Assembly (NCBI RefSeq): GCF_900104455.1
Contig: NZ_FNHB01000001.1
Span: 1,257,793 to 1,321,792 of the forward strand
Length of the DNA stretch: 64,000 bases
Direction: 5' to 3'
Origin: Dendrosporobacter quercicolus
GTDB lineage: Bacteria > Bacillota > Negativicutes > DSM-1736 > Dendrosporobacteraceae
The first letter of the stretch is position 1, and each line of letters opens with the position of its first letter. Shown here piece by piece: positions 13,762 to 45,829 of this stretch. The notes beneath the pieces were generated by a model. That model was not told the DNA's origin. It did not search any database and worked only from the letters and a program-made list of their open reading frames with translations. The position numbers and the translations under genes are program-made.

Positions 13762-14511
13762 ATGTTAAAAGTCATTATTTCTGAAGATGATTCTGCAATG
13801 CGGCTCCTTTTAACACGTGTAATAGAAAGAATTGACGGCGTAGAGATTATTGGCAAGACCGAAAATGGCAGACAGTTGATTGAGCTTGTTGAACAATTGA
13901 ATCCGGAGGCTGTGTTTTTAGATATTAATATGCCGGGGATCAATGGCGTCGAAGCATCGAAAGAAATTTTCGCCTTCAATCCCAGGATATTTCTCATCTT
14001 TGTTACTGCTTATGATTGTTTTACCCATGAGGCTTTTGATGTCTATGCCTTTGATTACATTGTGAAGCCGTTTGATCTGAACCGGCTGCATCGAACAATA
14101 AAGCGGATAAAGGAATTGAAGGAAGAGCGGGAAAAAATTGAATTTTTAAAACGGGCGGAAACGCTGTATGGCCGAAAAAATCCCAAGCTTAAAATTTCAA
14201 CCAATGAGAAAAGCGTCTTTGTCAATGTGCATGATATCATCTTAATTACCCGCAACGAACGTAAAACCACAATCTATACGACCGATGGCCTGACTATTCA
14301 GACCAACGATCCTTTGCACTTGTTAGAACAACGCTTGGAAAAATACAAGTTTTTCCGCTGTCACAAAGGGTTTATCATCAATTCCGATATGGTGTTGGAA
14401 CTGGCCCCCTGGGGAGCCAAAACCTACTTAGTCAAGCTGTCCAACACAACCGAAACCGCGCTGATGACATTAGAACACGCCAGAGAATTTCAAAAACGGT
14501 ACTGCCTGTAG
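13762..14511 (+). CDS. LytTR-family response regulator (AgrA-like)
   Basis: ATG 13762 with AAGAAGG RBS; receiver domain (ISEDD...LDINMPG...), C-terminal LytTR DNA-binding domain. Its 3' 306 nt lie inside direct repeat copy 1. Confidence 0.85.
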   Translation: MLKVIISEDDSAMRLLLTRVIERIDGVEIIGKTENGRQLIELVEQLNPEAVFLDINMPGINGVEASKEIFAFNPRIFLIFVTAYDCFTHEAFDVYAFDYIVKPFDLNRLHRTIKRIKELKEEREKIEFLKRAETLYGRKNPKLKISTNEKSVFVNVHDIILITRNERKTTIYTTDGLTIQTNDPLHLLEQRLEKYKFFRCHKGFIINSDMVLELAPWGAKTYLVKLSNTTETALMTLEHAREFQKRYCL

Positions 14512-14679
14512 CGACGACCGTCGAATCTCCCTCACCTAAGCAGGTCATCGGACGCTGGAAAAGCCCGGGATTCTGTCGGCCAAGTGAGCCTACATAAAAA
14601 AACAAGTCTGTCCAAAACCATATGGTATGGTTTTGGACAGACTTGTTTTTCGAACCGGAAACCGGGTATTACAGCAGCC
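14201..14679. repeat. direct repeat copy 1 (about 479 bp): 3' end of LytTR regulator gene plus its terminator
   Basis: Near-identical to 37630..38106. The only differences are cacctaag vs cactaaag and a 7-A vs 5-A run. Confidence 0.95.
14606..14650 (+). terminator. Rho-independent terminator of the LytTR regulator gene
   Basis: Perfect 17-bp stem GTCTGTCCAAAACCATA/TGGTATGGTTTTGGACAGAC followed by TTGTTTTT. Confidence 0.8.
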
Positions 14680-14721
14680 AAAAAATCATCTAATTCCCCA
14701 GTAAGGATTGCAAAACAATCA

Positions 14722-15252
14722 TTACGACACCCCTGCCAAATAATCAGTTATTCCCCTGGCTATCGCCCGGGCAAACTCATCTCGTTTACCGGCATCGGCC
14801 AATAATACCTCATCCTCCGGGTTTGAGATAAATGCCAATTCGACCAATACCGCAGGACAATCAGTATTTTTCAGCACATAAAATCCGGCCGTTTTAACTC
14901 CCCGGTCAACAGTACCAAGGCTATTGACTATCTGCCGCTGTATGCATCCTGCCAGTTTCTCCCCTTGCCCGCCAAGCGAATAACAATAGGTTTCGGTCCC
15001 CTGCGCCGCCCGATTTACCGCTGCATTGCAATGAATGCTAACAAATAAATCAGCGCCGAACCGGTTAGATGTATCTGTGATTTGATACAGTTCGTTTTTC
15101 TGTACTTCCAGCACTACGGCACCAATATCCCTTAGATACCCGGCCACCCGCTGCATAACGCCCTTAACAACAACGGCCTCCTGCAGGCCAGTTGCCCCTA
15201 CTGCCCCGGAATCTAATCCAGGGCAGTGGCCTCCGTTAATTGTAATTTTCAT
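14722..15252 (-). CDS. N-acetylmuramoyl-L-alanine amidase (Amidase_3 family) - lysis enzyme of the tail-like element
   Basis: Amidase_3 core (SIHCNA..., GTETYCY, ELAFISNPED); overlaps the holin-like gene upstream. Confidence 0.8.
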   Translation of the reverse strand: MKITINGGHCPGLDSGAVGATGLQEAVVVKGVMQRVAGYLRDIGAVVLEVQKNELYQITDTSNRFGADLFVSIHCNAAVNRAAQGTETYCYSLGGQGEKLAGCIQRQIVNSLGTVDRGVKTAGFYVLKNTDCPAVLVELAFISNPEDEVLLADAGKRDEFARAIARGITDYLAGVS

Positions 15253-15599
15253 GATGCGCGCTCCTTTTCAGATCCAATACGATCTTCAATATCATCCACT
15301 CGCTCCTTGATTTCGCCGACATTCTGATTTAGGCAGACCATCGTATTATTGATGTTGTTTAGGGCTTCCGTCTGCTTAGCAAGCGTATTGTTCACTAAAT
15401 CGCCCAGCCGTTCTTCTCTAACTTTGGCATCATCCATTGACTTGTTAAAAAACTCCTGCTGCCGGTCAGCCTGCTTGTCCGCCTTGCGGACAACATAAGC
15501 CAGCAGCGGCAGAAAACATATGACAAATAAAATAAACCCGATTAAGTTCGGGTTTTGTATGATATATGGTATTAATGATATGACTTGTATTGCTTCCAT
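15249..15599 (-). CDS. holin-like / lysis-associated membrane protein (single N-terminal TM plus coiled coil)
   Basis: 116 aa with TM LIGFILFVICFLPLLAYVV and a charged coiled-coil tail; directly 5' of and overlapping the amidase. Confidence 0.45.
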   Translation of the reverse strand: MEAIQVISLIPYIIQNPNLIGFILFVICFLPLLAYVVRKADKQADRQQEFFNKSMDDAKVREERLGDLVNNTLAKQTEALNNINNTMVCLNQNVGEIKERVDDIEDRIGSEKERAS

Positions 15600-15664
15600 T
15601 GCCCCACCCCATAAAAAAACAACCGCCTATTAGCGGCTGTTTCACACGTCATAATCTTACGACT

Positions 15665-15691
15665 AAAATAAAAAAAGAGGCTTAATGCCTC
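15665..15691 (-). terminator. candidate rho-independent terminator inside the 720-bp AT-rich gap
   Basis: Minus strand GAGGC-ATTAA-GCCTC followed by TTTTTTTATTTT. Confidence 0.35.
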
Positions 15692-16321
15692 TAAACATTA
15701 TCCATAACGTACAAATTGTGTATCGTTAATGACGGATTTTGTCTTTGTAATATTTCTAAAACTTTATATTTGACTACGCTTTCGTCCTCTATCCCCCAAT
15801 AGTAATGGCGTTCATGTGCATTCCCATAGCTTCATCAGGCATTCTCAAACTTAATTCCCCATTTTCTGAAAAAACAAAAGTGGTTCTCTTTAAATCCTGT
15901 TTCCCTTCAGCTTCAAATTGTGCGGTTAAAAGAATTAGAGCACACTACTCAAAAACCGTTCTTCATGTTTACTAATATCATAGGTAAATACGAATGTCAA
16001 CTTTTCCAATAATTCTTAGGGAAATACAGGTCTTTAAATGCGTGTTGAATTGTATTAATTACGATCATTAATCACGTCCCCACATTAAGATACCTTTATT
16101 TCTATTAATTATCTTAAGTGGTCGGAGATATTCCTTTATCGGAATAGTCTTTTTAGTTTGTTGCGATAAACGCTATACCCCGAAAGAGAATTACTCATAA
16201 TCATGACGGTATTCCCTCCTCGCACTTGATGTGACTACTCAATATTTTTTTAATGTTTACTTTTGTTTCGGATAGATTTTGCCTAGTCATAATAATGCCC
16301 TGCTCAATTTAAATAACCGCC

Positions 16322-16567
16322 TTAGCGATTTGCTGCGTCCTTGACCTGATCAGGCGTAAATCCTCGGTGTTCGCGTACTTGCTGAAAAATTTGCTCTACC
16401 TGCCCTGACTGTCCCTGCTGTTGTTTTGTCAGTTGCTGTTCCGCTATCCACATTTCTTGCACTTTTTGCTGCCTAAGTTGCTCTAATTGATTAATTTGCT
16501 CATTTAAGCGTTCCTGTTCTCTCCTAATGTCAAACGCCTCTGATTTTAATTGCATGATTTTGTCCAT
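16322..16567 (-). CDS. small Gln-rich coiled-coil protein (fibre-cassette B accessory)
   Basis: 81 aa; about 85% identical to ORF 22357..22599; lies directly 3' of tail fibre B. Confidence 0.55.
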   Translation of the reverse strand: MDKIMQLKSEAFDIRREQERLNEQINQLEQLRQQKVQEMWIAEQQLTKQQQGQSGQVEQIFQQVREHRGFTPDQVKDAANR

Positions 16568-16601
16568 GATAAAAAATCCTCCCTTAAATTAAAATAACCG
16601 C

Positions 16602-19600
16602 TTATGCGGTTTGATTCTTTAATTCGGCTATTTCAGCCGCTTGCTGATCTACTTTGGCCGATAGCTCCTGCACTGCCTTTATCAGCGGGCCGATAAACTC
16701 TGTATAGCGCAGACCGTGTGAGCCATCTTCTCCGATCGTAAATAATCCAATATCCCTTTCGCCCAGGACTTCCTCTACTTCCTGCGCGATCAAACCGGCG
16801 TGAGGGCGCTTACCGGGAAGTGGAGTTATTACTTCTTTGTACTTAGGCTGTTCCTTAGTAACTGCCGGAATAATAACTTCTTCTGTTATTTCTTCGGATA
16901 CAAGTTTTTCTTCTGTGACAGCTTCTTTTACTAGTCGTTCTTCGGTTACAGCTTCAGTAATTACATTTCCTTCTTCGTCCAGTTCCTCCGATTGGATAAC
17001 AACAGTTTCATATTTGGCTGGTTCTATAATGACAGTCTCATATTTTGCAGGGGTGACTACTCTAGTTTCAGTACGTTCTGGTTCTACTTCTACTGTTTCA
17101 GTTCCGTCTTCAACCTGGGATAATTCGTTTTGTCTGACTTTGTACTTAAATTCTACTGGACGAAGGGAGTTAACAAAATCCAGTCCTAAATCTAAATCTT
17201 TTATGTCAGTTTTCGATCTTTCATCGGAGGTATTAATGGTTGCACTAGCGGCAAAGATTTGTGACCACCTCAAGCCTGAACCGCCAAGGGCAAAATTATT
17301 ATCAACAGATGGCGCAAAAGCACCTGAATCTATAAAACATCTGTCTATATTATTCCTTCTGAAATTTATAGGAAGGTCCAAATTATTACCAATATACATA
17401 CCATTAGAATTTGCTGATATTCTGCCAATTATAGTATTATTTTGAGTAAACCCTAAGTATCCTCCAGTGGAACCATTTAGAATTAACGTTCCGTAATCAG
17501 AAGCATTAAATGCTGGGGATAATGTTCCAACGCTTACTATGTCATAAACATATTCCTTTTGTATATGCGACTCAGACCATCTATAACTACTAGCTCCTAA
17601 AAGATATGCATTATTGTTACCAGGTCGAATGCCATTAACATCTATATAGCACCTTGTAGCAATACCTCCACCTGCATATGTCCCTATCCCAAATGCTCCA
17701 ATTTCGCTTCCTGCTGTCGCAGTTTGGGCATAAGCATTAATTGTGCCATATGCGATATTTGCAGAAGCAGAACTCGCATTCCCTCCATGAAAAGTAATCC
17801 CTGCCGCAGCCGCCCCACTGGATAGTGTACTTGTTCTCTCTAAACCTATCATATAAGGAGACCCTGCGCGATTTATCCACAGCATGTAAGTATCATTTGT
17901 TGCTGTATTAGCATTTGGCCCTAACTTGATTAATCCCGTAAATCTCCCATGATCTGTAAATAGGGTAGACCACCTAAAATTAGACTGTCCGCAACTAAAA
18001 TTATTATCACTTGCTGGCCTAATGCCTTGATGGTTTACATATAACCTATCAAGTAGATTTCCTGCGGCGTTTCTTGTTGCAACCAAAAATCCACCTACTT
18101 CTGAACCTGCTGTTGCAGTTTCGCAAAAACCTGATGCTAAAGCGTAATCTAAGTTTGCGATTTGATTTGAGCTGTTACCTCCCCTAAACAATATTGCTCC
18201 TACTCTTTGATTTCCATTTAGTATCTCTGCCCTCTCTAATGCCATAGAAGTAGTGCCTAATGTTCTCGCATAGTAGACACTTGAATATACAGAAGCCCAT
18301 CTATTAGTTACTAATCCAAGCGCATCTGTATTATTTACACTGGGATAAAACCCTTTATAATCTAGATACATTTTTGTAACAGAATTATTTCCCTCACCTA
18401 TCTCGAACAATAATCCCCCCTTTTCTGCTCCGGCAGTAGAATCAGAAGCATAACTTATTATAGTTCCGTAGGGTAGTCTTGCGTTTGCATTAGACGCGCT
18501 GCCACCTCTTAGCTGTATCCCTGTGGCACGTGGGGCGGCAGATGTTATAAGGGCATTTCTTTCACCCAAGATAGAGACAGGATTTGCTGGCCTTGAAACA
18601 TGAAAAGTAGCTAGTGGATCATTTGTGCCTAATCCCAAAAATCCTCCAACCGTAATTCTCATTTGCTCAGTGAAGGAACTCTCCCCATATATTGCATTAG
18701 TGTTGCCACCAAATATAAGTGGCCCAAAAGATGAGAGCCTGACTCCTCCGGTAATTGTTGAATCAAAATCCAAATATCCCGCAGTACCAGAACCAAAAAG
18801 ATAGCCATTTCTAACGCCTGTAACAGTTGCATGAACAGATATTCCACTATTGCCTGCTCCTCCAGTATACACCTGAAATTGACTTGGTATTGAACTACTA
18901 GGTACACCTCCCAAGCCAAGTTTTCCAGATGGAGCGCAAGCTAATCTTGTAGCATAATCAAGACCGTCTGCTGATGTGTCGTGAAAGTCCAAATATTTTC
19001 CAATGTCCAAAACCCCTGTATTCCCAACATGCGGGACATAAGGCCAAGCTTGAGTATTGCTTTTATAAAGAAGAGGTATTCCTCCAATTACTACATTCCC
19101 ATTCGGAAATGATACAGTATCAATTGTCATTCCTGAGCGGTAAACCCCCATGAAGGTGGTAGCTGAACTGTAGTTATCATTTAACACCCTAAAAGCTATA
19201 GAATTATCACCCACCACTGCTCCCCAATATTTATTATCAGTCGAGGCATTTGTTTTAACTAAGTCAAACGAGGGGCTTGTATTTGATACTCTCACGGCTC
19301 CGGTAAAAATAGCTCCGCTTGATTTAGCAATCTCGTGCCAAACTCCCCATGTCCCATTTACCCATTGTCTTTCATATATCCGATTAGAGGTATCTCTGAA
19401 TCTTAGAAAAATCCAACCAGAAGAAGCACTATTATAAACTCCAGTTACACTTAAATATCCCCAAATACCCGATGAGTATGGGGCGTTAGTTATAGCCGTG
19501 CCACTAGATACTACTATGGAAAAATTTTTTACTGCGCCCATATAACCTGGTATAAACGCAAATAGGGCAGGCAGATCGTTAAAGTCGGTAATGCTGCTAC

Positions 19601-19976
19601 CAATCCCTTGCGACATTCGGGGAAAGTTCGTAATTGGTATCGTACCAAGAGTAGTTGCATCTCCTGTGATACTTGCGGGAAGTTTAGCTTCGGAGTTAAG
19701 ACGTAATAACTTATTTGCTGTAGCTGTGGTGACAACATCAGACGCAGCTACGGCATTCGTTATACCAAAACCTGCCAGGGTACTCGGCTTAGACAGGATG
19801 TTAGTCCAGGACGTTTTAACTATGCCGTCCTCCATTATTGCGCGAAGGCACTCAGCCCAAAAATCGTACAGCCCTAAATTGCTGTTAGTCATCAGAAACG
19901 GCGTTGTCTTGCCGTATGCCCCCACTCGAATTATATTGCCGCTGCCGTCGTACTGTGTTCCAAAGTTAAATGCCAC
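16602..19976 (-). CDS. tail fibre protein B (1124 aa) with C-terminal S74-type intramolecular chaperone domain
   Basis: N-terminal 80 aa conserved with fibre A (MAFNFGTQYDGSG...). Gly/Ser-rich beta-region with three about 100-aa internal repeats (RGG(N/S)xS...YGTI...TAG(S/A)E). C-terminal ...ASATINTSDERSKTDIKDL... then coiled coil, as in T5 pb1 / K1F endosialidase chaperone domains. Confidence 0.75.
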   Translation of the reverse strand: MAFNFGTQYDGSGNIIRVGAYGKTTPFLMTNSNLGLYDFWAECLRAIMEDGIVKTSWTNILSKPSTLAGFGITNAVAASDVVTTATANKLLRLNSEAKLPASITGDATTLGTIPITNFPRMSQGIGSSITDFNDLPALFAFIPGYMGAVKNFSIVVSSGTAITNAPYSSGIWGYLSVTGVYNSASSGWIFLRFRDTSNRIYERQWVNGTWGVWHEIAKSSGAIFTGAVRVSNTSPSFDLVKTNASTDNKYWGAVVGDNSIAFRVLNDNYSSATTFMGVYRSGMTIDTVSFPNGNVVIGGIPLLYKSNTQAWPYVPHVGNTGVLDIGKYLDFHDTSADGLDYATRLACAPSGKLGLGGVPSSSIPSQFQVYTGGAGNSGISVHATVTGVRNGYLFGSGTAGYLDFDSTITGGVRLSSFGPLIFGGNTNAIYGESSFTEQMRITVGGFLGLGTNDPLATFHVSRPANPVSILGERNALITSAAPRATGIQLRGGSASNANARLPYGTIISYASDSTAGAEKGGLLFEIGEGNNSVTKMYLDYKGFYPSVNNTDALGLVTNRWASVYSSVYYARTLGTTSMALERAEILNGNQRVGAILFRGGNSSNQIANLDYALASGFCETATAGSEVGGFLVATRNAAGNLLDRLYVNHQGIRPASDNNFSCGQSNFRWSTLFTDHGRFTGLIKLGPNANTATNDTYMLWINRAGSPYMIGLERTSTLSSGAAAAGITFHGGNASSASANIAYGTINAYAQTATAGSEIGAFGIGTYAGGGIATRCYIDVNGIRPGNNNAYLLGASSYRWSESHIQKEYVYDIVSVGTLSPAFNASDYGTLILNGSTGGYLGFTQNNTIIGRISANSNGMYIGNNLDLPINFRRNNIDRCFIDSGAFAPSVDNNFALGGSGLRWSQIFAASATINTSDERSKTDIKDLDLGLDFVNSLRPVEFKYKVRQNELSQVEDGTETVEVEPERTETRVVTPAKYETVIIEPAKYETVVIQSEELDEEGNVITEAVTEERLVKEAVTEEKLVSEEITEEVIIPAVTKEQPKYKEVITPLPGKRPHAGLIAQEVEEVLGERDIGLFTIGEDGSHGLRYTEFIGPLIKAVQELSAKVDQQAAEIAELKNQTA

Positions 19977-20001
19977 GTGGTAGCCTCCTTTCCTTTCTGT
20001 G

Positions 20002-20724
20002 TTAGTAATTAGTAACGTCTAAGACTAAATAATTGTACCTTGTTTGAAAGTAATTCCTCGTGGGGATATTCATGTCGCCCAAATAGTACGAGTAAAGCAA
20101 GTAAGAACCATTCACAGATAATTTAACATTCGTTGAACTAAAATCTATTGCCGGGCCTTGAAAGTGTACGTTTACGTGCTGTATCCCCGCCCCTGTCTCA
20201 TCACCATCACTAACTACATGTGTCGCTGTGGGAGCCTTCCCAACAACAACTGCCACATTATCAGGAGATGTTGTTGCGTATTCCCCAAAAACCCATTCCT
20301 CGTTAGAACCCGGCCAACTCCAACTATGTCCATCCTTTATTGCTCCACTTCCCGATGATAATACCTTCATGAACTTCGCGGCATCAGAGAAACAAATTTC
20401 TTCGTTTTCGTTCCTCACCTCAAAATATCGTCCCGAAGGAATGTTTGCAAAATCAAAAATATAGTAAGTAACTAATAAATCCCCTAAACCATCAGCGGGA
20501 TGATAAAACCAACTCCCTTCCTTGTAAGGAAGGGTATACACCCTTCTGCCAGCAGGGATTTTAAAAGCAATAATTTTTCCCTCTCCTGTGTCTACTGAAA
20601 TAGAGTAATTGTTGGTTTGCTGCTTTAGGGTAATAGTGCCTTTACTGACAAGCTGCAAATTCTTGTATTCGGCTGTAATTTGCAAAATCCCAGAATTATT
20701 ATAAATCTCTATTCCTGCTGCCAT
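20002..20724 (-). CDS. fibre-cassette B adaptor / assembly protein (240 aa)
   Basis: N-terminal MAAGIEIYNNSGILQIT and C-terminal LVLDVTNY conserved with ORF 25502..26167; divergent middle. Confidence 0.5.
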   Translation of the reverse strand: MAAGIEIYNNSGILQITAEYKNLQLVSKGTITLKQQTNNYSISVDTGEGKIIAFKIPAGRRVYTLPYKEGSWFYHPADGLGDLLVTYYIFDFANIPSGRYFEVRNENEEICFSDAAKFMKVLSSGSGAIKDGHSWSWPGSNEEWVFGEYATTSPDNVAVVVGKAPTATHVVSDGDETGAGIQHVNVHFQGPAIDFSSTNVKLSVNGSYLLYSYYLGDMNIPTRNYFQTRYNYLVLDVTNY

Positions 20725-20726
20725 AA

Positions 20727-21035
20727 TTAATACACCCCATAAATAACATATTCTGGACGCTTACCGTCTTGATTAAAGGGGCTGCCTTCGATAAATGTCC
20801 AGCTAATTGTTGTCCCGCTAACAGTATACTGACATGCATATGAGTTATAAGGATAACTGCTGGTTGCATGTATCCAGGGAGTCCCAAACGCAAGCGCAGC
20901 ATCGGTGTGGGAGCCGTCAGTAGTGCCGGTAGAGAATGTACCTAAAACCCTGGTTAATCTGTCGGTCACATCTAAAGTTAAATTACCGTTTGCGTCCCAA
21001 ATTTGCAGCCCGCAGGGCATCTTACCACCTCCCAA
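20727..21035 (-). CDS. small tail protein (102 aa), paralogue of 26168..26482
   Basis: MGGGKMPCGLQIWDANGNLTLDVTDRLTRVLG vs MGGGNMQGLQCWDANGNLTLDLTDRLTRVLG. Confidence 0.55.
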   Translation of the reverse strand: MGGGKMPCGLQIWDANGNLTLDVTDRLTRVLGTFSTGTTDGSHTDAALAFGTPWIHATSSYPYNSYACQYTVSGTTISWTFIEGSPFNQDGKRPEYVIYGVY

Positions 21036-22327
21036 ATCTTATTCTTAATTGCCCGTTTTCGTCGTGGACTGTGGTTAACGCTCCGCTGATCGTTGTTTTG
21101 CCATTAGCTCCAGCAGAGACAAACGTACCCAAATTCGCAAACATGGCGGAAACAGTGTTAGATTCCAGATGCCCGGCTTTAACCGCTCCGGCCTGAATCA
21201 TCCCGGATGCAATAACATTTCCATCAATTTTGGTATTGGCGGCAATTCGTAAATACCCAGTGTTGATGTAAACTTCTGTCGGCGTAATAACCAGCAGCGA
21301 TTGCAAACTGCCGTCAGCGGCCCGGAAATACAGACCTTGGAGCATTTGCAAGATAGCAGTCACTTGAGTTTGAGCCAGCGGCTTGCCAATTTCTGTTACT
21401 AAACTGTTGATCCGGTCTGCCTGTTGCGTAAACTGGCTTTGCACGCCCTGTTTATCAGTTGCATAAATGCCACTGAGAAAGCGGTTCAGGCTGCTGTCGT
21501 CCGTATGTTAGTCGCTTTTTCCCAGTCGGCAGCAGCGTACGCCTGGCCTGTTGTTTTTTTGGTTTTGCAGCACATAAGTTCACCGCCAGTGCCTTGCGTC
21601 CACAAATCCCCGACATCATATGGCGGAACAGGCGCTGCTATAAATACCCTGCGCTTACTGTCGGCGGTGTCCTGTGCTTTCTGTGCAGCATCCAGCGCAG
21701 CAGTAACATCGGTATCTGATATTAAATCCCAGGAATAAACTGTGCCAGTTTTCATAAAGCGGTAGGCTTTTTTATTGTTTGTGTCGTAGTACAAATCGCC
21801 TAAATGGACATCACGAACGGCATTGGTCGTCCATGTGTTGGCCGGGGCATTGCTGAGCGTCGGCACCCCGGCGGAAAACCAGGTAGTAATGCTGCCGTCA
21901 ATTTGGGATTGCAGTTGCGCGTTTATGCTACCCTGGGCCTGTTTGTTAGCGGCGACAGTGCGGTTTTGTTTTCATTTACGGCAAAAGCGATTTGGTTACT
22001 TTTACATTTAGGGCAGCAACGCTTCCAAACTGATTCGGAGCGTCAGGAGCGGAGTTTAGTTTACCGGCCATAATGCCTACAGATTCCGCCGTCTGGCTGA
22101 TCAGCGTCCGGTTTTCAGTATCAACCTGAGCCAGCTCGTTTTTGGTTTCCGTAAACACAGTTTTGGATACCGTTGTCTCTCCCAGCGCAGCTACAGCGCC
22201 GTCGATAACTTCCATAGCGTCGCTGACGGCATCCATTGCGTTATTAAACGTTTCTTGTGCAATGCTTTTCTGAGCCTTTTCAATAGCTTATTGCGCGGCG
22301 TCTTCCAACTCACCAATTGCAATCTGG
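21036..22327 (-). pseudogene. decayed duplicate of the 3' about 1.3 kb of the J-like gene (frameshifted and stop-interrupted fragments)
   Basis: ORFs 21022..21444, 21486..21866 and 21976..22236 each match, in order, segments of the C-terminal 500 aa of the 1658-aa protein (for example TQVTAILQMLQGLYFRAADGSLQSLLVITPTEVYINTGYLRIAANTKIDGNVIASGMIQAGAVKAGHLESNTVSAMFAN) but sit in different frames. Confidence 0.8.
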
Positions 22328-22356
22328 ATTGCCCCACCCCCATAAAAATAACCGCC

Positions 22357-22599
22357 TTAGCGGTTTGCTGCGTCCTTGACCTGATCAGGCGTAATCCCCG
22401 GTGTTCGCGCTGGGGTAATTTGATCTACTCGTACCGATGGTTGCCCTTGCTGTTGGTTTGTCAGTTGCTGTTCCGCTATCCATATTTCTTGCACTTTTTG
22501 CTGCCTAAGTTGCTCTAATTGATTAATTTGCTCATTTAAGCGCTCCTGCTCTCTCCTAATGTCAAATGCCTCTGATTTTAATTGCATAATTTTATCCAT
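22357..22599 (-). CDS. small Gln-rich coiled-coil protein (fibre-cassette A accessory)
   Basis: 80 aa; paralogue of 16322..16567. Confidence 0.55.
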   Translation of the reverse strand: MDKIMQLKSEAFDIRREQERLNEQINQLEQLRQQKVQEIWIAEQQLTNQQQGQPSVRVDQITPARTPGITPDQVKDAANR

Positions 22600-29400: not shown

Positions 29401-31445
29401 TGGGTAACCAATAAATTGTTGGCCAGCGTATAGTCGCCTTCCCGCTTAGCCTGCGAACGCCGCTTTACGCCAAACAACTGCAGCTGTGTCGGCGTGTCAT
29501 CGGCAATCGAACTGACTGCCCAATCCTCCGAACGAACCTGAAATTGAGTGTTTTTAAAATCGTTTTCGGTATCCGAAAAAATGACTTCAACAGATTTTGT
29601 CCGATCCTCGATTCCGGTAAAACTGCCCTGGAAGCTGGACATAACTGTACGTCCTTCGCCGAAAACCTGAGTCATAACCCCAGGTTTGTCACAGACAATG
29701 CTGATGTTGTTGCCCCTGAGCATTATCGTGGCGTGACCGACAGTAGCCGCCTTTTGCGCAGCAACTTGCCGTTTTAGGGCAGTATCAAAAAAGGCGTCAA
29801 ATTCAAAGCGGTTCTCCGGGCCGTCCGGGCCTTCAATCTGTCCGTCGGCATAGGCGGCGGCCTCCATCCATTCGTCCCAATACGGGTCAAGTCGGTCATG
29901 TTTGATACCAAATACAACGTATTCATCTTGACCGGTGTTGATATTTCTCAGCAGCCGGCACTGATGGTAGATGTCATAGGCCGCCCAAATTGGATTATTA
30001 GCGCGCTTGGCTTGATATTGTTTCGTATACGGGTTCCATGCATAAACGGTGTCCCGCCGCTGCCGCCAAGTAACACTGGGGATACCGCCAGACAGTTGCC
30101 CGGTTGCCAGTATCCGCAGGCCAATTAAAACTTTGTTCGGCCGGCAAAAATTGCCGTAAATCACAGTTGTAAGTCGCGTCCAGTATACAGTCGTGGAATC
30201 TCGGGTACCAGACACCGCCGAACGCGCTTTAACCCGCATCCTGACCTCATATTTCCCGGGCGCAAGATTTTCAAGGCTGTAGGAACGGCGAACTGCGGTA
30301 TTTTGCGCGGCTGTAATACGGGCTGTGCTTGCTGTGACGATGGTGTATGTGCCTATCCTCGGGACAACAAATGATATTTTACCATTATCATATAGCTCAC
30401 CAGGGCGAAGGTTGCTAGCCATTTTACCAGAAACACTGCCCTTAAGAGACATAACTCCTAAGCACAGAATTGTCCACGTTTCCGCCGGCGCATCGGCAGC
30501 GCATTTAGCGCCGGCAATCCCGCTCGATGCTACATAGGTACTGCCCAACCAATTCTGCCACTCACCACCGACAAGCCTGTACTGAGATTCTAATTCAACC
30601 CAGGCGTTTGTCAGGTTCCCCTTATCATTCAAATGGTAAAGGCCGCTGGGAAATTCCACACTAACCTGTAGGCCCTGGGCGTCCGTATTGTCGGCAACGT
30701 ATGTCGCCCAGGCGTCTTGCAGCTCATGGGAAATTTCCTGGTTGTTGGTGGTATTGCCCAAATAGGTTATGGCAGTTTGGTCGTTTGTACCTAACCGGGT
30801 TTCAATTTGCACGTCAGTGTAATTTTCGATAGGGTTATCACCGATTTTGATATTGCTGATTTCGTCAACCGGCCCCATGCCACCGCAAAACAACAGGTTA
30901 AGATATTGCTTATCGTCAACTGTGTCAAGATGGCTTTCCAATAGTTGCGGCGCTGGGATGCACTCACCATAGGTCACGCCGACCACGCCGCCTTCACCGG
31001 TGATAGGCTTTGGCAGGTCCCAGCCGTAGGTTTGGGTGGTTTCTTGCGATGATAAGCCGGACCGTTCCACTGGGACAAGCGCGTTTATGATTTTGCCACC
31101 AAGCACTGCTACAGTACCGGAGGCAAGGCAAGAGGCAATCGATCCTTTTCCAAGACCCCACAGCCCGTCCGCAACCTTCCCCGTATAAGCCGCCAATGCT
31201 ACGCTGGCAATCACGCCAAGTATCTTTTTAAAACTACCTCCGCCAACATGCGGCATAACAATGATCTGGTCACCGTCGCAGGGATAAGTCGTTTCCGGCT
31301 GCTCCACCCAATTACCGTTGAGTATAAATTCTATATTCTCATCCGGAATATACGTCCGCAGGCTTTGCCCTGGGATAAAATGAACGCGCTCAGTTTCCCG
31401 GCGCGTCCTGTCAAACGGATTTTCAATTTTTATAATTTCCAGCAC
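26469..31445 (-). CDS. lambda gpJ-like host-specificity / central tail fibre protein (1658 aa)
   Basis: Size, position after K/L/M homologues, FN3-like repeats, coiled-coil and beta-rich C-terminal part that is duplicated in the pseudogene. Confidence 0.7.
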   Translation of the reverse strand: MLEIIKIENPFDRTRRETERVHFIPGQSLRTYIPDENIEFILNGNWVEQPETTYPCDGDQIIVMPHVGGGSFKKILGVIASVALAAYTGKVADGLWGLGKGSIASCLASGTVAVLGGKIINALVPVERSGLSSQETTQTYGWDLPKPITGEGGVVGVTYGECIPAPQLLESHLDTVDDKQYLNLLFCGGMGPVDEISNIKIGDNPIENYTDVQIETRLGTNDQTAITYLGNTTNNQEISHELQDAWATYVADNTDAQGLQVSVEFPSGLYHLNDKGNLTNAWVELESQYRLVGGEWQNWLGSTYVASSGIAGAKCAADAPAETWTILCLGVMSLKGSVSGKMASNLRPGELYDNGKISFVVPRIGTYTIVTASTARITAAQNTAVRRSYSLENLAPGKYEVRMRVKARSAVSGTRDSTTVYWTRLTTVIYGNFCRPNKVLIGLRILATGQLSGGIPSVTWRQRRDTVYAWNPYTKQYQAKRANNPIWAAYDIYHQCRLLRNINTGQDEYVVFGIKHDRLDPYWDEWMEAAAYADGQIEGPDGPENRFEFDAFFDTALKRQVAAQKAATVGHATIMLRGNNISIVCDKPGVMTQVFGEGRTVMSSFQGSFTGIEDRTKSVEVIFSDTENDFKNTQFQVRSEDWAVSSIADDTPTQLQLFGVKRRSQAKREGDYTLANNLLVTQFVDISTDIDAMVSQYGDIVGLNHAVSQIGIASGRLVAATEDSITLDKTVLLSPGKSYEIIISLATDKLVKRYIVAVAKDTETDTLTVTESFGIIPEKYDNYVFGEVNKSVKPFRLVGVTKNGDFKCQLKLAEYVEGVYDGDLNYPVVDYTPPAAGTLEVSNLSVSFRVGWQGYGTVVPVIYCSWQLPSMSVKSVIVYYSADDGATWTKWSDMLATEAQINGVKLQERYLVKVCTVNELGLTSAGVVSDPIYITDEDLPAPEHVTNIFITENNQNQGNNVVLNELYVACTPPDSLYYSHAEWYIKSHNPGVNEYDLTDPAFYDVPVEDIGAMLDNWKLVDGAAKDNITIKNLILGETYSIKVVAVNTLGKKADFDTAPVKTHTITGKTTIPSTPDNFVVQITDVATCTWTRIPDTDCDFYELRADQNPGVNAGLLARTASTKALPTLAERQGTLYLYAHNTAGTVGKYSVPASYSYYKAPPPMPQNVTITGIFQGFRLTTEALPTHCIGINVHVDGQVYFSNNNTYTYEARSGIFQIQVAFVDIFGEGALSPVELVEVQSQIAIGELEDAAQEAIEKAQKSVAQETFNNAMEAVDGAMEVINDAVTELGETTVSKTEFTETKNELALVDTENRTLISQTTEFVSVMNGKLASAPDAPGQFESIAALNVKNNQIALVVNENKTATDNAIAAVDIKANQISQTVASNKQDADGKIETLTGQINAVPGKITAAVTEAKQDITNNQIAPVVTRVAAIEVTTEGITNTVSGLQTQVDGKAANWVYSGVPTLSNQPAVNWNTAALKEKHLGDIYYDTSGKAAYVFSKAGATYSWQGITADVDLSEIQSQINQQNNQISSIVTSTLANTQVTAILQMLQGLYFRAADGSLQSLLVITPTEVYINTGYLRIAANTKIDGNVIASGMIQAGAVKAGHLESNTVSAMFANFGTFVSAGADGSKTTISGPLITVHHPNGKLAARFGRW

Positions 31446-31447
31446 TA

Positions 31448-31834
31448 TTACTCACCTCGTGGCACATAAAATCCAATAATATTGCTCTGCCAGCGCTTAA
31501 TCCGGTCAATAATCACACCGGTTTTACTATAGGCGTGGATAAACTTCCCGTTACCAATATATACGCCGACATGATTGGCCCAGCTGACGCAGCTTAACTG
31601 GATGACTACCAGGCAAGGCACTGGCAAGGGTTGCTTTACTTCTACCCAGGCCGGGGCCTCTGTTGCCATTTGGTCGCCAATTTTTTGGGCGTCCATTGCA
31701 GATATTCGGTAATCGGGCAGCTCCCGGCCATAACGCCGGTAAACTTCCAGAGCCATCCCCCAGCAATCGAAGGTTTCCTGGCCTCTGCCGCCGTCTTGAA
31801 AGGGCTGGCCAATAAGATCATCAATTTTTACCAA
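31448..31834 (-). CDS. NlpC/P60-domain tail assembly protein (lambda gpK-like)
   Basis: 128 aa with a Cys-His papain-like core (FDCWGMALEVY ... H); placed between L-like and J-like genes as in lambda. Confidence 0.65.
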   Translation of the reverse strand: MVKIDDLIGQPFQDGGRGQETFDCWGMALEVYRRYGRELPDYRISAMDAQKIGDQMATEAPAWVEVKQPLPVPCLVVIQLSCVSWANHVGVYIGNGKFIHAYSKTGVIIDRIKRWQSNIIGFYVPRGE

Positions 31835-31907
31835 GGAAATAAATACCTCCTATCGAAGGTTGTCCTTAAAGGGAGGTGATGAGGAATGTTGGGATTAAAC
31901 CGCTTAT

Positions 31908-32498
31908 TTAGGCTGATTGCATCCCTTTTTCCCCATTGTAGCGCTCCCTGATTTGACAAGTTGACAGCGTATTGTCGCAGGGTTCTTCATTGCCGGCATA
32001 GCCGCACATAATATCCTTAAAATAATGCGGACAAAAATCCCTGATATACCGCCAAAACGGAAACCGGAAACTGTGATCGTTGGACGCTCCGATATTAAAC
32101 GTTACCCATTGCTCATCATAGTCAGTTTTAATTATGATATAATCCATTTCAAATTCCGGAACGGGATTATCCAAATGGGCCGCATGAACAATCATCAGCT
32201 TAACAGGAGCGTCACAGAAGCCTTTGTGCTGCTGGACATACGTCTGGACCATACCGCCAACATTACTGACCTTGAGGCTAACCGACGGGAGTTCTTTTCC
32301 ATCCTCGCTTGTAATTTTGTCTAAGTCAATCGGGAAACGTATCCACGAGTGACCGTTCCAGGCAATATCCTCATTATTGCGAACCAACCGGATGGGTTCT
32401 GCCAACCCAGGAACGTCCAATTGCACCAACAAGAGAAATGGAGCGTCATTGGCCAGCTTGTTTTTTTCAAGTATGCCCGCAAGGGACCAATTAAGCAT
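31908..32498 (-). CDS. minor tail protein L-like (C-terminal 4-Cys cluster)
   Basis: 196 aa ending CPHYFKDIMCGYAGNEEPCDNTLSTC, reminiscent of the lambda gpL Fe-S motif; synteny. Confidence 0.55.
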   Translation of the reverse strand: MLNWSLAGILEKNKLANDAPFLLLVQLDVPGLAEPIRLVRNNEDIAWNGHSWIRFPIDLDKITSEDGKELPSVSLKVSNVGGMVQTYVQQHKGFCDAPVKLMIVHAAHLDNPVPEFEMDYIIIKTDYDEQWVTFNIGASNDHSFRFPFWRYIRDFCPHYFKDIMCGYAGNEEPCDNTLSTCQIRERYNGEKGMQSA

Positions 32499-32724
32499 AA
32501 AAATGTCTCCTTTTCAAAAGACTGTCACTAAGCAGGAATAAAATAATATGATTTAGCACAACATGGTTGGCGTATCGCCGCCCAGTTCAAAAGTATTGCG
32601 GACAATCCGGATGCCGGTGTCCCGGTCAATCTGAATTTCCAGCAGAATTAGGCCATACCCCGTCTGAGGCCAGCTTGTTCTTTTCCAGGATCGCCACTTT
32701 AGATAAATCAAGGGCCATGGTCGA

Positions 32725-33093
32725 CTATACCTCCTGTAGTTTAAATTCCCCCGAATACTGACCCGGACCAACCAAATCAAACCGTATCTCTCCGCTTATA
32801 AACCGGACTGTAAACACCTTTTTACTATAGGCGTCATCCGGCACCTCAGGATAAGTCCAGTAGAATTCCCGGCTGCCGCCTAGGACGACATCCTTCCAGA
32901 ATGTGCGCAGAGCATGATAGTCCCTCGCCGGCAGAGCCTGCCATTTTAGACGAAAAGTTTCCCTGACCCTGGTAAATTTAGGTCGGGAGACAATGTAGCC
33001 GTTTTCCATTTTGGAAGTTAACGCCGGATCTTCCCACTCGCTGCTGAACGGATAACAAGGCTGCTGTATCTCAGGAAATTCCGGTAAAGTCAT
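32725..33093 (-). CDS. minor tail protein M-like
   Basis: 122 aa; position between the tape-measure-like and L-like genes. Confidence 0.45.
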   Translation of the reverse strand: MTLPEFPEIQQPCYPFSSEWEDPALTSKMENGYIVSRPKFTRVRETFRLKWQALPARDYHALRTFWKDVVLGGSREFYWTYPEVPDDAYSKKVFTVRFISGEIRFDLVGPGQYSGEFKLQEV

Positions 33094-33097
33094 AGTT

Positions 33098-34159
33098 CTA
33101 CCCCCTCGCCCCTATGATATCGCGCATACCGCTGACATTTCGCGCATATGCGTCTAAAAAAATATCGACAACATACTGCCGGCCGTCCCAGTTTATCTGT
33201 CCCTGGCGGGCGCTGGCCTGAACGCCGGTATTGTTAACCACATTAATGGTTACTGCCGGTTCAGCCAAAGAGGCGGCGGACCGGTTAAGTTGATAATTGG
33301 GAACGATTGTTCCGGACGTATGGGGCACAAACAATTCCTTACCTGATTCTCCGACAATCACCGCTTCCTGCCCGCGCACTTCCCCCCCGCTTTGTTCCTG
33401 CTTAATGCCGAAAATCTTATTAATCCATTTGGGAAATTGCTGGGTAACCCACATCTGCAGAGTGACAACCAAAAATTCCTGCGCTAGTTTTTTGATAATT
33501 CCCATAAAACTCTGCCTAAAACTTTCCGCTCCACTGAGCATATTTTGCATATGCCCCTGAATGCTGGCATTCACCCGCTCGACACCGTCTTCTATTAACT
33601 TGGCCTCATCAAGCGGGTTTTTATCTGCTTTTGCTTTGTCAGCCGCACTTTGTTTTTTCTGTACTGCAGTGGTAGTTGCGGGTGTCCCTGATGCAGCAGC
33701 CGATGATACTGCATCATCCACCTTCTGCTCGGCACCGCCCTCTTTGCCAAACCAGTTTTTTATCCTGCCCTGCCACCATTCTTTAAGCACCGGAAGAATA
33801 GTATCCTCCAGCCATACCTGCATGACTACACGTCCCAGTTCATTGCCTGTATTTTGCAGAATTTGCGTAAATCCCTGACGAACCGATTGTTTTCCGTCAA
33901 AAATTCCGCCAATGGCTTCATCAATTTTTTTCTGCAAATTTTCAAAGCCATCCTGAATATGTTTCTCCATCGCCGGAGTCAGCTTTGCACTGCTTGGCTC
34001 CTTGCTGTTATCCGGTATTACCTGAGTCATTTTTTGCAGTGTGGACGCCTGTATTTCCGCTATGTTCTGCATTTTCTCAGTTGTACTTTCCAGGGCAATA
34101 ATATGCTCTTTCTGGTATTCTTCCCATTTGTCCACTGCTGCCGAGGTATCACTGTCCAT
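33098..34159 (-). CDS. tape-measure-like protein (short, 353 aa)
   Basis: Coiled-coil/helical N-terminal half, Gly-rich C-terminus, position 5' of M/L/K/J homologues. Confidence 0.45.
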   Translation of the reverse strand: MDSDTSAAVDKWEEYQKEHIIALESTTEKMQNIAEIQASTLQKMTQVIPDNSKEPSSAKLTPAMEKHIQDGFENLQKKIDEAIGGIFDGKQSVRQGFTQILQNTGNELGRVVMQVWLEDTILPVLKEWWQGRIKNWFGKEGGAEQKVDDAVSSAAASGTPATTTAVQKKQSAADKAKADKNPLDEAKLIEDGVERVNASIQGHMQNMLSGAESFRQSFMGIIKKLAQEFLVVTLQMWVTQQFPKWINKIFGIKQEQSGGEVRGQEAVIVGESGKELFVPHTSGTIVPNYQLNRSAASLAEPAVTINVVNNTGVQASARQGQINWDGRQYVVDIFLDAYARNVSGMRDIIGARG

Positions 34160-35861: not shown

Positions 35862-35887
35862 CTCCCTCTATTCTTTATCCGTACAAG
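35862..35887. promoter_or_regulatory. conserved about 24-nt motif copy A (CTCCCTCTATTCTTTATCCGTACAAG), upstream of the structural operon
   Basis: Same motif recurs at 37388..37411 and 37507..37530. Confidence 0.5.
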
Positions 35888-36497
35888 ACAGAGTTGATTT
35901 ATGCAATTCAATTGATGTTTTCTTTTGTTTTTTATAAAAGGATAATAACCAAAGCATACCCGGTCAGGCTGGCAAGTCATACCAATCGGTAACGGGTAAC
36001 CCTAACGGCCTCCCCGTTGAATCATAAAGGCAATAACCTGCAAAATAAACTCCAACTCCAGCCGAAATGTATCCGGCTGTACGATATACGTTGTCAATTC
36101 GTTTATGGGCTGATTTTATCGACTCATGAGCCTGAACGCGCGCCTGGCATGGCGGCACTGTGCAACTACAATATCCATCCCCCCAAGCTTATTTAACTGA
36201 TAATTGCCGCAGGCGGTGGCTGCTGACATTGGCGTCTGTATCATTCCAGTTGTGTTCTTTGGCAATCGCGTTTTTAATGTGCCGAAAGTATTGCGCATAT
36301 CAGCGCTTGACAGAGCGCTGTTGGCCGCAGGCTTATTTGAGTCAAAACCCATTTTTATGACATTCCCGTCACTTAAATCTTCTTACCGGCTTTTATTCTA
36401 TATGCCTCACCCCCTCACTGCCTGCCCTTTCAACAGGATGTTAGTACCGAGGGCCGGGTACTGCGTTCCTTACGAAACCACACACGGCTTTCTCTTT

Positions 36498-36974
36498 TTA
36501 GTGCAGACTGTTCTGGACTAATTTTGCACGTTTATTTAAATAGCTGGTCAGTCTGTTAAACGCCTGACTTGCATGTGAGGCCGCCGTAGCGGCGCTAATG
36601 CCCATAGCGGTACTAATTTCTTTATATTCATAGCCTTGCTGCAAAAGCAGAATTACCCGTTGCTGACGCGGACTTAGGTGCTTAATCCCCTGATCAATAT
36701 CCACAATAATGCACAGCAGCTCCTCTTTTGCCGTTCTGGCTCCTGTTTTCCCTACTCTATCCAGCCTGTTTGCAACATATTCCAACGAACTGCGTACTTG
36801 CTGATATCGTTTAATCGTATTAGCGATTTGCTCACTTCGATAGTCTTCAAATTTTCTTATATCTGCTTTAATCACGCTTACTCTCCTCCTCAAATCAGCC
36901 ATCTGATCAAGTTGCATTGGCTGGACTAACCGGCCTGTCAGCAGCGTTCCCTCTTCACCGAGCTCCGCTTGCAA
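36498..36974 (-). CDS. sigma-70 region-4-containing regulator (phage late sigma factor, Xpf/ECF-like)
   Basis: C-terminal RQQRVILLLQQGYEYKEISTAMGISAATAASHASQAFNRL is a sigma-70 r4 / LuxR-type HTH; 158 aa. Confidence 0.6.
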   Translation of the reverse strand: MQAELGEEGTLLTGRLVQPMQLDQMADLRRRVSVIKADIRKFEDYRSEQIANTIKRYQQVRSSLEYVANRLDRVGKTGARTAKEELLCIIVDIDQGIKHLSPRQQRVILLLQQGYEYKEISTAMGISAATAASHASQAFNRLTSYLNKRAKLVQNSLH

Positions 36975-37234
36975 TTTCCCCGCGAATAATGATAGGTCTG
37001 CGATGGTGAACCGTTAAGTAACATATCGATGAGATACGTTGAATATAAATGAATATTCATCTTATAATAGCGTTTGTTACTTCTACGCCAGTAAACATCT
37101 AATGTGTTTAACAGATTATGAATGGTTTGGGCCTTTTCTTGAATTTTATCCTCAGGCCAGTTTGGCTGCTCTCGCCGGTACATCTCCCGGAGCATATCTA
37201 TAGTGTAATATAACATAATACTCCTCCTTAACAA
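36938..37234 (-). CDS. hypothetical small regulatory protein (98 aa) upstream of the sigma-like gene
   Basis: ORF overlapping the start of the sigma-like gene; no recognisable motif. Confidence 0.35.
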   Translation of the reverse strand: MLRRSIMLYYTIDMLREMYRREQPNWPEDKIQEKAQTIHNLLNTLDVYWRRSNKRYYKMNIHLYSTYLIDMLLNGSPSQTYHYSRGNCKRSSVKRERC

Positions 37235-37387
37235 TGATCATCGCCTTCCGGGTATCCAATTAAGCAAATTGTACGAACAAATGCGAATTGCATTTGAGCA
37301 TAAAATCACCTCGATTTCCATATATCCAGTAATACTTGCTGGTGTCCTAATTCTCTCAATTTTATGCAGTGTTAGAACAAAGATTTG

Positions 37388-37411
37388 CCTCTATATTTAT
37401 ATCCGTACAAG
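37388..37411. promoter_or_regulatory. conserved motif copy B (CCTCTATATTTATATCCGTACAAG)
   Basis: Upstream (minus sense) of the regulator genes. Confidence 0.45.
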
Positions 37412-37506
37412 TTATGACAATTTCATGCAGATTTTTTAGAAATTATGGTAAAAAATATTATTTTTTCTATAATCAAGCAAGTTTATGGAATTATTCCCAT
37501 AAACTT

Positions 37507-37530
37507 CTCCCTATTCTTTATCCGTACAAG
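37507..37530. promoter_or_regulatory. conserved motif copy C (CTCCCTATTCTTTATCCGTACAAG)
   Basis: Near-identical to copy A. Confidence 0.5.
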
Positions 37531-37629
37531 TGCTCTGAATTTATTGCAGGACAATTTAATATTTCTTAATAGCACAAACCCTCATTACAACAAAAAAACT
37601 GCCTAGTGCATAGCACTAAGAATGTTCAT

Positions 37630-38106
37630 CCAATGAGAAAAGCGTCTTTGTCAATGTGCATGATATCATCTTAATTACCCGCAACGAACGTAAAACCACA
37701 ATCTATACGACCGATGGCCTGACTATTCAGACCAACGATCCTTTGCACTTGTTAGAACAACGCTTGGAAAAATACAAGTTTTTCCGCTGTCACAAAGGGT
37801 TTATCATCAATTCCGATATGGTGTTGGAACTGGCCCCCTGGGGAGCCAAAACCTACTTAGTCAAGCTGTCCAACACAACCGAAACCGCGCTGATGACATT
37901 AGAACACGCCAGAGAATTTCAAAAACGGTACTGCCTGTAGCGACGACCGTCGAATCTCCCTCACTAAAGCAGGTCATCGGACGCTGGAAAAGCCCGGGAT
38001 TCTGTCGGCCAAGTGAGCCTACATAAAAACAAGTCTGTCCAAAACCATATGGTATGGTTTTGGACAGACTTGTTTTTCGAACCGGAAACCGGGTATTACA
38101 GCAGCC
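37630..38106. repeat. direct repeat copy 2 (about 477 bp)
   Basis: See copy 1; contains a 5'-truncated LytTR-domain coding fragment and a second copy of the terminator (38044..38088). Confidence 0.95.
37656..37940 (+). pseudogene. 5'-truncated duplicate of the LytTR regulator gene (C-terminal 94 codons only)
   Basis: Protein identical to residues 209-302 of the regulator at 13603..14511; no receiver domain, no own promoter seen. Confidence 0.85.
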
Positions 38107-45822: not shown

Positions 45823-45829
45823 AACGTCT

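Follow-up and report, generated by a model that had tools for sequence, protein, structure and literature searches.

The lambda bio and gal transducing genomes form by imprecise excision and re-integrate by homology, and prophages and integrative islands that restore the gene they enter encode an integrase and are flanked by repeats that are usually tens of bp long and reach ~100-200 bp at most. The pyocin locus, to our knowledge, lies between conserved genes without such repeats. Here we describe a phage-tail island of Dendrosporobacter quercicolus DSM 1736, analyzed within 64,000 nucleotides of contig NZ_FNHB01000001.1 (positions 1,257,793 to 1,321,792 of the forward strand, assembly GCF_900104455.1; hereafter the window, whose first letter is position 1). 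The island is 22.9 kb long, lies between the gene of a LytTR-family response regulator and a convergent gene for a CCA-adding enzyme, and is flanked by 480-bp direct repeats that comprise the 3' end of the regulator gene and its terminator. A Campbell-type single homologous crossover would explain this arrangement, a reading to which we give a probability of about 0.7. From gene content alone, it is reasonable to regard the island as F-type tailocin-like.

The direct repeat and the island-free allele

Repeat search and pairwise alignment placed the two copies of the direct repeat 23,429 bp apart, start to start, with the matches falling into two direct families spaced by 23,429 and 23,427 bp. 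The first 335 bp of the copies are identical (14201-14535 and 37630-37964), and a perfect match of this length cannot be due to chance. The copies then differ at two sites, with CT in copy 1 (14536-14537) versus TA in copy 2 (37965-37966), and a run of seven A (A7) in copy 1 (14596-14602) versus five (A5) in copy 2 (38025-38029), before a final 78 bp that are again identical. Overall identity is 99.4% over 480 bp, and to the left the similarity reaches 14196 and 37625 through four matching nucleotides (TTCA) and then a single mismatch. An earlier note on this DNA had described near-identical direct repeats of about 478 bp bracketing the island; alignment placed its coordinates right to within 1 bp and found the differences between the copies as it had described them.

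Both repeats are host gene sequence in direct orientation. Copy 1 is made up of the last 311 bp of the regulator gene and 169 bp of downstream sequence. The regulator (exact protein on record NSL47508.1/SDL92295.1) is read as a 249-aa form from 13762, or in a 258-aa call from 13735. The full gene encodes Response_reg and LytTR domains, whereas copy 2 codes for the LytTR domain alone, in an open reading frame (ORF) at 37656-37940 that is annotated as a 94-aa protein, in agreement with the earlier reading of copy 1 as the native 3' end and of copy 2 as a promoterless 3' fragment. Along the DNA, the native gene is followed by the repeat, the insert, the repeat fragment and then the right flank, which is the Campbell-type geometry that the same note had recognized.

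A mis-join in the assembly, either of the repeat or in the placement of the island, is extremely improbable. A short-read assembly of the strain (L001) does break inside the repeat hairpin, ending at window position 38078. However, two DSM 1736 assemblies (accessions NSL475xx and SDL9xxxx) each include the full regulator as well as the 94-aa fragment, with the same gene order in both, and the dendrubin paper describes two genomes produced independently (JABTVI000000000 and GCA_900104455.1). Since two independent assemblies, from two laboratories, hold both the gene and the fragment, the duplication is not the assembly artefact that had been allowed for. Furthermore, unique sequence is joined to each copy on both sides, and the two sites that distinguish the copies mark them as distinct loci, which for practical purposes excludes a collapsed or invented repeat.

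An allele with a single copy of the repeat exists in nature. The Joint Genome Institute (JGI) metagenome contig Ga0154004_1002774 (L083; sample 3300012112) measures 4,053 bp and carries the kinase gene, the regulator, one repeat, the CCA enzyme and the next gene, with 187 bp between the converging gene ends of regulator and CCA enzyme and no island. Exact-sequence look-up placed both the 258-aa regulator call and the 404-aa CCA enzyme on this contig. It aligns to window positions 12335-14680 and 37617-39816, and when compared with the joined window sequence 12335-14200 plus 37630-39816 it shows 2 single-nucleotide polymorphisms (SNPs) in 4,053 bp (99.95% identity in the flanks). Its single repeat carries the copy 2 variants TA and A5. 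The contig is exactly the predicted single-copy junction, so that the proposal that the insert can be excised to one copy found its allele. The hairpin sequence occurs once among all JGI metagenome contigs, on Ga0154004_1002774. Four island proteins, with cluster sizes of 1-3, had no JGI/IMG source by exact look-up, while both flank proteins had one, and the island thus seems to be absent from sample 3300012112. A literature search with the metagenome identifier found nothing.

Comparison with related genomes, which the earlier note had pointed to, gave two outgroups that lack both the insert and the duplication; the duplicated arrangement without an insert that the note had named as a refutation was not seen in them. 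A relative that is 98% identical (L084) carries the den cluster, the kinase and the regulator, followed ~140 bp later by helix-turn-helix and ATP-binding cassette (ABC) transporter genes that stand at 46.7 kb in the window, and in a more distant relative (L089) the regulator is followed directly by the ABC transporter. The tail island and an RNA-repair-type module (CCA enzyme, WYL, RtcB, RlaP) are missing from both. Both outgroups have CT at the first variant site, L084 has a run of seven A at the second, and both keep a diverged version of the terminator. Because the outgroups match copy 1, the variants of copy 1 are ancestral, and the TA/A5 of copy 2 and of the single-copy strain are derived. 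The regulator protein, searched against genome contigs, gave among the matches listed only partial ones at up to 45% identity and full-length ones at ~30-34%, and no orthologous locus.

Two other accounts of the repeat sequence were tried and rejected. A foreign origin of the regulator 3' end was tested by looking for a jump in divergence to L084, which instead rises gradually across the repeat boundary, with no step at 14201. A repeat spanning the edge of the RNA-repair-type module had been considered since blastn homology to L084 stops at 14553, and was dropped when multiple alignment showed the terminator region of the outgroups to be present and diverged.

Proposed recombination at the repeat and its alternatives

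In the proposed crossover, the 480-bp segment of the chromosome would recombine with its counterpart on a circularized island. The outcome would be an intact regulator with its terminator on the left and a dead 3' fragment with a terminator on the right, and the reverse crossover would delete the island precisely. The single-copy allele combines the left junction of copy 1 with the TA/A5 of copy 2, which maps the crossover to 14201-14535. Read as a gain, a circle with the island and a CT/A7 segment would have entered a TA/A5 chromosome, such that copy 1 would consist of chromosome-left and element-right and copy 2 of element-left and chromosome-right sequence. Read as a loss, an island-bearing chromosome whose copy 2 was already TA/A5 would have dropped the island, and the left junction of copy 1 and the right part of copy 2 would have remained. 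As judged from these alignments, carriage of the island is a very recent presence/absence polymorphism arising from recombination in the first 335 bp of the repeat.

Repeats of such length should permit RecA-dependent precise deletion as well as tandem amplification, and the island is therefore expected to be losable. The earlier description of it as "phase-variable or losable" held in its second half, in view of the single-copy allele, but not in its first: once excised, the circle would lack genes for replicating or for integrating again, so loss should be one-way. As to how an element came to carry the segment, a plausible route is that an element situated directly behind the terminator excised imprecisely and carried off 480 bp of the host, much as in the formation and homologous re-integration of lambda bio and gal transducing genomes. 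Such an earlier position is suggested by the place where the island meets copy 2 (junction B), which lies inside coding sequence at the 4-nt TTCA microhomology (37625-37628), and by the amidase gene at the other end of the island, which has no terminator of its own.

We scanned island ORFs of at least 60 aa not lying inside a longer ORF against Pfam and PHROGs, and flank ORFs against Pfam. No integrase, recombinase or transposase was matched among the scanned island or flank ORFs, as the earlier note had maintained for the DNA between the copies. By blastn, the repeat segment had no match in plasmids or in GenBank phages, and neither a pattern scan for the hairpin nor a scan for close LytTR fragments gave a match in IMG/VR viral contigs. 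Host homologous recombination through RecA is favored over a site-specific att reaction because the duplicated host segment is 480 bp long and its copies are 99.4% identical, because no recombinase gene or recognizable remnant was found, because no phage, viral contig or plasmid was found to carry the segment, and because the closest headless relatives occupy unrelated sites. A composite transposon or insertion sequence-mediated island was rejected, as the repeats are direct host gene sequence and no transposase was found among the scanned ORFs.

The same geometry would be left by a prophage, and the repeated block extends slightly beyond a terminator with dyad symmetry, a type of site often used for integration. 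On this account a tyrosine or serine integrase of a temperate siphophage targeted the regulator 3' end, with an attP attachment site carrying a replacement 3' end and terminator, so that the arrangement matches attL/attR exactly and a copy brought by the element makes the target gene whole again; integrase, lysogeny, replication and head genes were deleted later, and attL and attR stayed behind as the 480-bp repeats. A complete related siphophage exists, and the lysis genes stand at the island edge, as in the usual Firmicute prophage layout. However, among the scanned island ORFs there is neither an integrase gene nor a recognizable remnant of one, the two largest island stretches without an ORF of at least 60 aa gave no phage match by blastn, and no viral contig was found with the hairpin or a close LytTR fragment. 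The closest headless relatives likewise stand beside unrelated host genes and without a LytTR fragment, and the deletions would have had to clear everything up to the repeat on one side while sparing the repeat. The length and closeness of the match, 480 bp at 99.4%, suggest recent capture from the same lineage and far exceed those of known att identity blocks. We therefore regard a prophage origin of the duplication as unlikely. Somewhat less probable still is a duplication made in place without a circle, for example by homology-facilitated illegitimate recombination of linear DNA or by unequal sister-chromatid exchange, in which the 480-bp segment would anchor one end and microhomology would join the other. 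Junction B resembles such an illegitimate join, the reliance of the amidase gene on the terminator of the regulator suggests that the island already lay beside it, and what follows downstream differs in three ways among relatives, which makes the locus a hot spot of plasticity; yet two coordinated events or two sister chromosomes would be needed to obtain a duplication rather than a replacement, direct support is lacking, and one reciprocal crossover explains the single-copy allele and the pattern of variants more simply.

Several points weigh against the crossover as we propose it and against the tailocin it would have moved. The circular form is a proposal and none has been observed, no island gene explains how a headless, integrase-less cluster would circularize and transfer, and a site-specific integrase that was later deleted would be compatible with the sequence. 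Gain and loss fit equally well and take the same number of mutations. Ga0154004_1002774 is a short-read metagenome contig, in which an assembler could in principle thread a collapsed repeat; this is argued against by the fact that the island proteins and a second hairpin context were not found in the JGI collection. Tailocin function, that is, particles and killing, is predicted from gene content, and the island holds debris, namely a broken gpJ remnant and a 720-bp stretch without an ORF of at least 60 aa.

A bolder version of the crossover would have an integrase-less mobile tailocin circling among sibling strains, the 480 bp being captured host DNA and host RecA serving both entry and exit, which we consider quite unlikely, a little less so than duplication in place. 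If true, carriage would be a dynamic population polymorphism with producers, non-producers and possibly amplified copies, and loss and amplification would be favored by the same DNA damage and RecA activity that usually induces tailocins.

Gene content of the island and its headless relatives

All island genes, from 37234 down to 14722, lie on the minus strand (Table 1). Transcription would begin with a 98-aa protein, a protein of the sigma-70 region-4/GerE type and two small ORFs, followed by the tail tube, a chaperone-like protein, the tape measure, gpM-like, gpL, gpK and gpJ-like proteins, a fiber cassette, a second fiber cassette, a holin-like protein and the Amidase_3 lysin. Capsid, portal, terminase, replication and lysogeny genes had no match among the scanned island ORFs.

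Table 1. Features of the island and its immediate flanks, in window coordinates
Feature	Position	Strand	Details
Sensor histidine kinase that partners the LytTR regulator; core-genome gene of the left flank	12453..13511	+	Pfam SPOB_a + HATPase_c
Intact LytTR-family response regulator, depositor's name DenX	13762..14511	+	Response_reg + LytTR; stop at 14511
Direct repeat copy 1	14201-14680	+	480 bp; regulator 3' end + terminator; variants CT, A7
Palindromic bidirectional intrinsic terminator	14598..14650	both	25-bp-stem hairpin, T-runs flanking on both strands
Lysis cassette	14722..15599	-	Amidase + holin-like gene
Second, apparently appended receptor-binding cassette	16298..22299	-	Peptidase_S74; tail-protein PHROGs on broken ORFs
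First receptor-binding cassette	22333..26482	-	Peptidase_S74; phrog_2427/phrog_4062
Lambda-like distal tail and ruler	26469..34159	-	FNIII-A_GpJ, Phage-tail_3, NLPC_P60, Phage_tail_L
Short tape-measure protein, 353 aa	33098-34159	-	C-terminus matches tape-measure PHROGs; syntenic with relatives' 411-419-aa tape measures
Tail-assembly-chaperone-like 81-aa protein	34482-34727	-	Tube/chaperone segment 34482..35708; phrog_290 match in segment
Tail tube protein, 316 aa	34758-35708	-	Phage_tube_2, E = 6.7e-54; exact protein P0024
Island-specific 20-21-nt element CTATTCTTTATCCGTACAAG	35868..35888		Upstream of tube gene; repeated at 37511-37530; 13-nt core also at 37400-37412
Island regulators, first genes of the cluster	36498..37234	-	158-aa sigma-70 region-4/GerE type (36498-36974); 98-aa protein (36938-37234)
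AT-rich control region + junction B	37235..37629		Small minus-strand terminator-like hairpin (37602-37620)
Direct repeat copy 2	37630-38107	+	478 bp; LytTR-domain fragment + terminator copy (38025-38077); variants TA, A5
CCA-adding/poly(A) polymerase-HD protein, right flank	38128..39342	-	PolyA_pol + HD; first gene of RNA-repair-type module (to ~46746)

The 158-aa regulator matches Sigma70_r4_2 (E = 1.2e-10) as well as sigma-factor PHROGs, and regulator homologues stand directly upstream of the tube gene in the related clusters L087, L088 and L090. A scan of IMG/VR viral contigs with this sigma-like regulator gave no match. An identical 20-nt CTATTCTTTATCCGTACAAG stands at 35868-35887, before the tube gene, and at 37511-37530, before the regulator operon; the element is absent from the den and regulator promoters, is probably a promoter or operator of the island itself, and is a candidate site of action for its sigma-like regulator. 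The tube protein is the sole member sequence of its 90% cluster; it was seen on two contigs and is listed from NCBI, Logan, UniRef and MetaClust.

The distal tail set consists of a 1658-aa gpJ-like tip, a gpK-like NlpC/P60 protein, gpL and a 122-aa gpM-like protein. The first receptor-binding cassette encodes 104-aa, 221-aa and 80-aa proteins and a 950-aa tail fiber (22632-25484). The second encodes 102-aa and 240-aa proteins, a 1124-aa fiber with an endosialidase-chaperone domain (16602-19976) and an 81-aa coiled-coil protein, and opens with a broken remnant of a gpJ 3' end (21022-22299; ORFs 21022-21444, 21486-21866 and 21976-22236). Repeat families of 71-94% nucleotide identity pair the stretch 16298-22299 with 22333-27695. 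This pairing and the broken gpJ copy suggest that recombination with another tail cluster of the same kind added the second fiber module. In the lysis cassette, the N-acetylmuramoyl-L-alanine amidase at 14722-15252 matches Amidase_3 (E = 3.7e-39), and the small holin-like membrane protein at 15249-15599 has a phrog_1625 match and an N-terminal hydrophobic segment. The 720-bp stretch without an ORF of at least 60 aa, from the holin-like gene to the fiber cassette (15600-16321), may be degraded or non-coding. By blastn against GenBank phages, neither 15600-16322 nor the control region together with copy 2 had a match.

The gpL, gpK and gpJ proteins share 78-89% identity with their counterparts on a contig of a complete siphophage (Logan contig ERR5773482_189), whose tape measure is 1219 aa long and which also has genes for ClpP protease, decoration and capsid proteins. 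The tail genes are thus real and of phage ancestry. Headless clusters of related design occur elsewhere. Two IMG/VR contigs (L087/L088) carry a host oxidoreductase, two sigma-r4-type regulators, a tube protein (69% identical), a 419-aa tape measure, the M-L-K-J set and a fiber. A related headless non-contractile tail cluster is found in Pelosinus sp. IPA-1 (L090, BSVC01000006.1 31551-52498; locus 2943-20948), with a GerE-type regulator, a tube protein (74% identical), a 411-aa tape measure and M-L-K-J. It directly follows contractile-tail baseplate genes (Phage_base_V, PAAR, gp25-like, Baseplate_J and fiber), and this tandem of R-type and F-type clusters recalls the Pseudomonas aeruginosa pyocin locus, here in a Negativicute. 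In a third contig, the regulators that immediately precede the tube gene are cI/Cro-like. Across these headless relatives, the tape measures are 408-419 aa long in L087/L088 and L090/L091 and 627 aa in L092, and regulators stand directly upstream of the tube gene in L087/L088, L090/L091 and L092, such that the headless architecture is conserved across genomes, a sign of domestication and not of random decay. The closest of them adjoin unrelated host genes and carry no LytTR fragment.

The island has a full non-contractile tail set, its own regulators and a lysis cassette, together with the absence of head, terminase, replication and lysogeny genes noted above, all of which are characteristic of F-type tailocins. 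An F-type tailocin reading fits because headlessness is conserved, the ruler is consistently short, and regulators and a lysis cassette are dedicated to the cluster. The 353-aa tape measure predicts an unusually short tail, and a short ruler is common to L087/L088 and the Pelosinus headless clusters. At ~0.15 nm per residue, 353 aa would correspond to a flexible rod of roughly 50-60 nm. A literature search for F-type tailocins in Negativicutes found nothing relevant. Together, these clusters suggest that the Sporomusaceae, which are diderm Firmicutes, have a family of lambda-like tail clusters that are headless and have short tape measures, a tailocin family without a published description as far as we found, which may be the more interesting lead.

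Regulatory signals, flanks and comparison with known systems

The hairpin of the terminator in copy 1 has a fold energy of -40.8 kcal/mol (z = -10). This terminator serves both the regulator gene on the plus strand and, on the minus strand, the amidase gene, the last gene of the island, which ends 41 bp from the repeat and uses the terminator of the regulator. As read from the sequence, a side effect of the duplication would be a strong bidirectional terminator at each island end, one copy ending the amidase gene and the other shielding the island promoter region from read-through of the CCA operon.

A stand-alone LytTR protein made from copy 2 was considered and rejected. An in-frame TAA (37617-37619) lies directly upstream of copy 2, the first in-frame start is the GTG at 37656, reading the sequence by eye revealed no Shine-Dalgarno-like sequence upstream of this GTG, and no plus-strand promoter was predicted between the first gene of the island and that codon (37235-37655). 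More speculative still is an expressed 94-aa LytTR domain that would interfere with the DenX regulon, which no promoter, start-codon context or shared operator supports. Control of the island by DenX was sought through operator-like words common to the den/regulator promoters and the island control regions; none were found beyond chance-level short k-mers, and only the island-internal 20-21-nt element stood out.

To the left, the island is flanked by den, the type II polyketide cluster for dendrubin. The kinase gene next to the regulator is also present on the island-free contig and in L084. The den cluster, kinase and regulator (window 3780-14553) are 98% identical in Logan contig ERR1288716_315. 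In contig SRR33440611_187, a regulator that falls into the same 90% cluster, with protein identity of 90% or more and ~89% nucleotide identity, adjoins chemotaxis genes and there is no den cluster, which indicates that the polyketide cluster is strain-variable at this locus too. On the right, the CCA-enzyme gene converges on the regulator gene in the single-copy allele. The RNA-repair-type module (38108-46746) is itself an insertion relative to L084 and holds genes for the CCA/poly(A) polymerase-HD protein, a 349-aa unknown, a WYL-domain protein, RtcB, Band_7 and two RlaP proteins. Its RtcB RNA ligase gene is split at 41809-43075 into overlapping ORFs (41809-42516 and 42326-43075); the split is also present in an independent short-read assembly of the strain, and the gene may be either a pseudogene with a frameshift or one that is recoded. 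Four genomes show four different states at the site that follows the regulator. By this comparison, the site is a plasticity hot spot and the tail island appears as its most recent layer.

In kind, the locus is ordinary, a Campbell-type duplication around a strain-variable, phage-derived island, and it is unusually well documented through both alleles, which were captured in strains differing by 2 SNPs in 4 kb of flank. On the crossover reading, it would be a natural example of a phage-tail weapon cluster gained or lost without a dedicated recombinase, one homologous crossover being enough, with the regulator gene staying intact despite the insertion. It also marks the island as unstable in DSM 1736, the dendrubin producer, in which the repeated sequence is the 3' end of the regulator gene adjacent to den, a point that matters for work with this strain.

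Among known systems, prophages and integrative islands that restore a tRNA, tmRNA or protein gene share with the island the direct repeats, the near copy that completes the gene and the distal copy that is dead. The repeat at this locus differs in being 480 bp long and near-identical to the host, with no integrase found. In gene content the island resembles F-type tailocins, such as the F-pyocins of Pseudomonas aeruginosa and the monocins of Listeria: a headless, flexible, non-contractile tail cluster that starts at the tube gene and contains chaperones, a tape measure, lambda M/L/K/J-like proteins, fibers, its own regulators and a lysis cassette. It differs from F-pyocins and monocins in its diderm Firmicute host (Negativicutes) and its very short tape measure (353 aa), and from F-pyocins in that its regulator is of the sigma-70 region-4/GerE rather than the PrtN/PrtR type, and in that it is bracketed by 480-bp repeats, strain-variable and known here from genes alone. 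In arrangement, the island comes close to lambda dgal and lambda bio lysogens and to Campbell-integrated circles. Unlike these, it has no packaging, head or replication genes, and the likeness rests on geometry and on established lambda genetics. As in those systems, however, the element would carry host DNA from beside its former insertion site, lacks an integration function of its own and would enter by a single homologous crossover, a direct duplication of a host stretch flanks it, and the reverse crossover would remove it.

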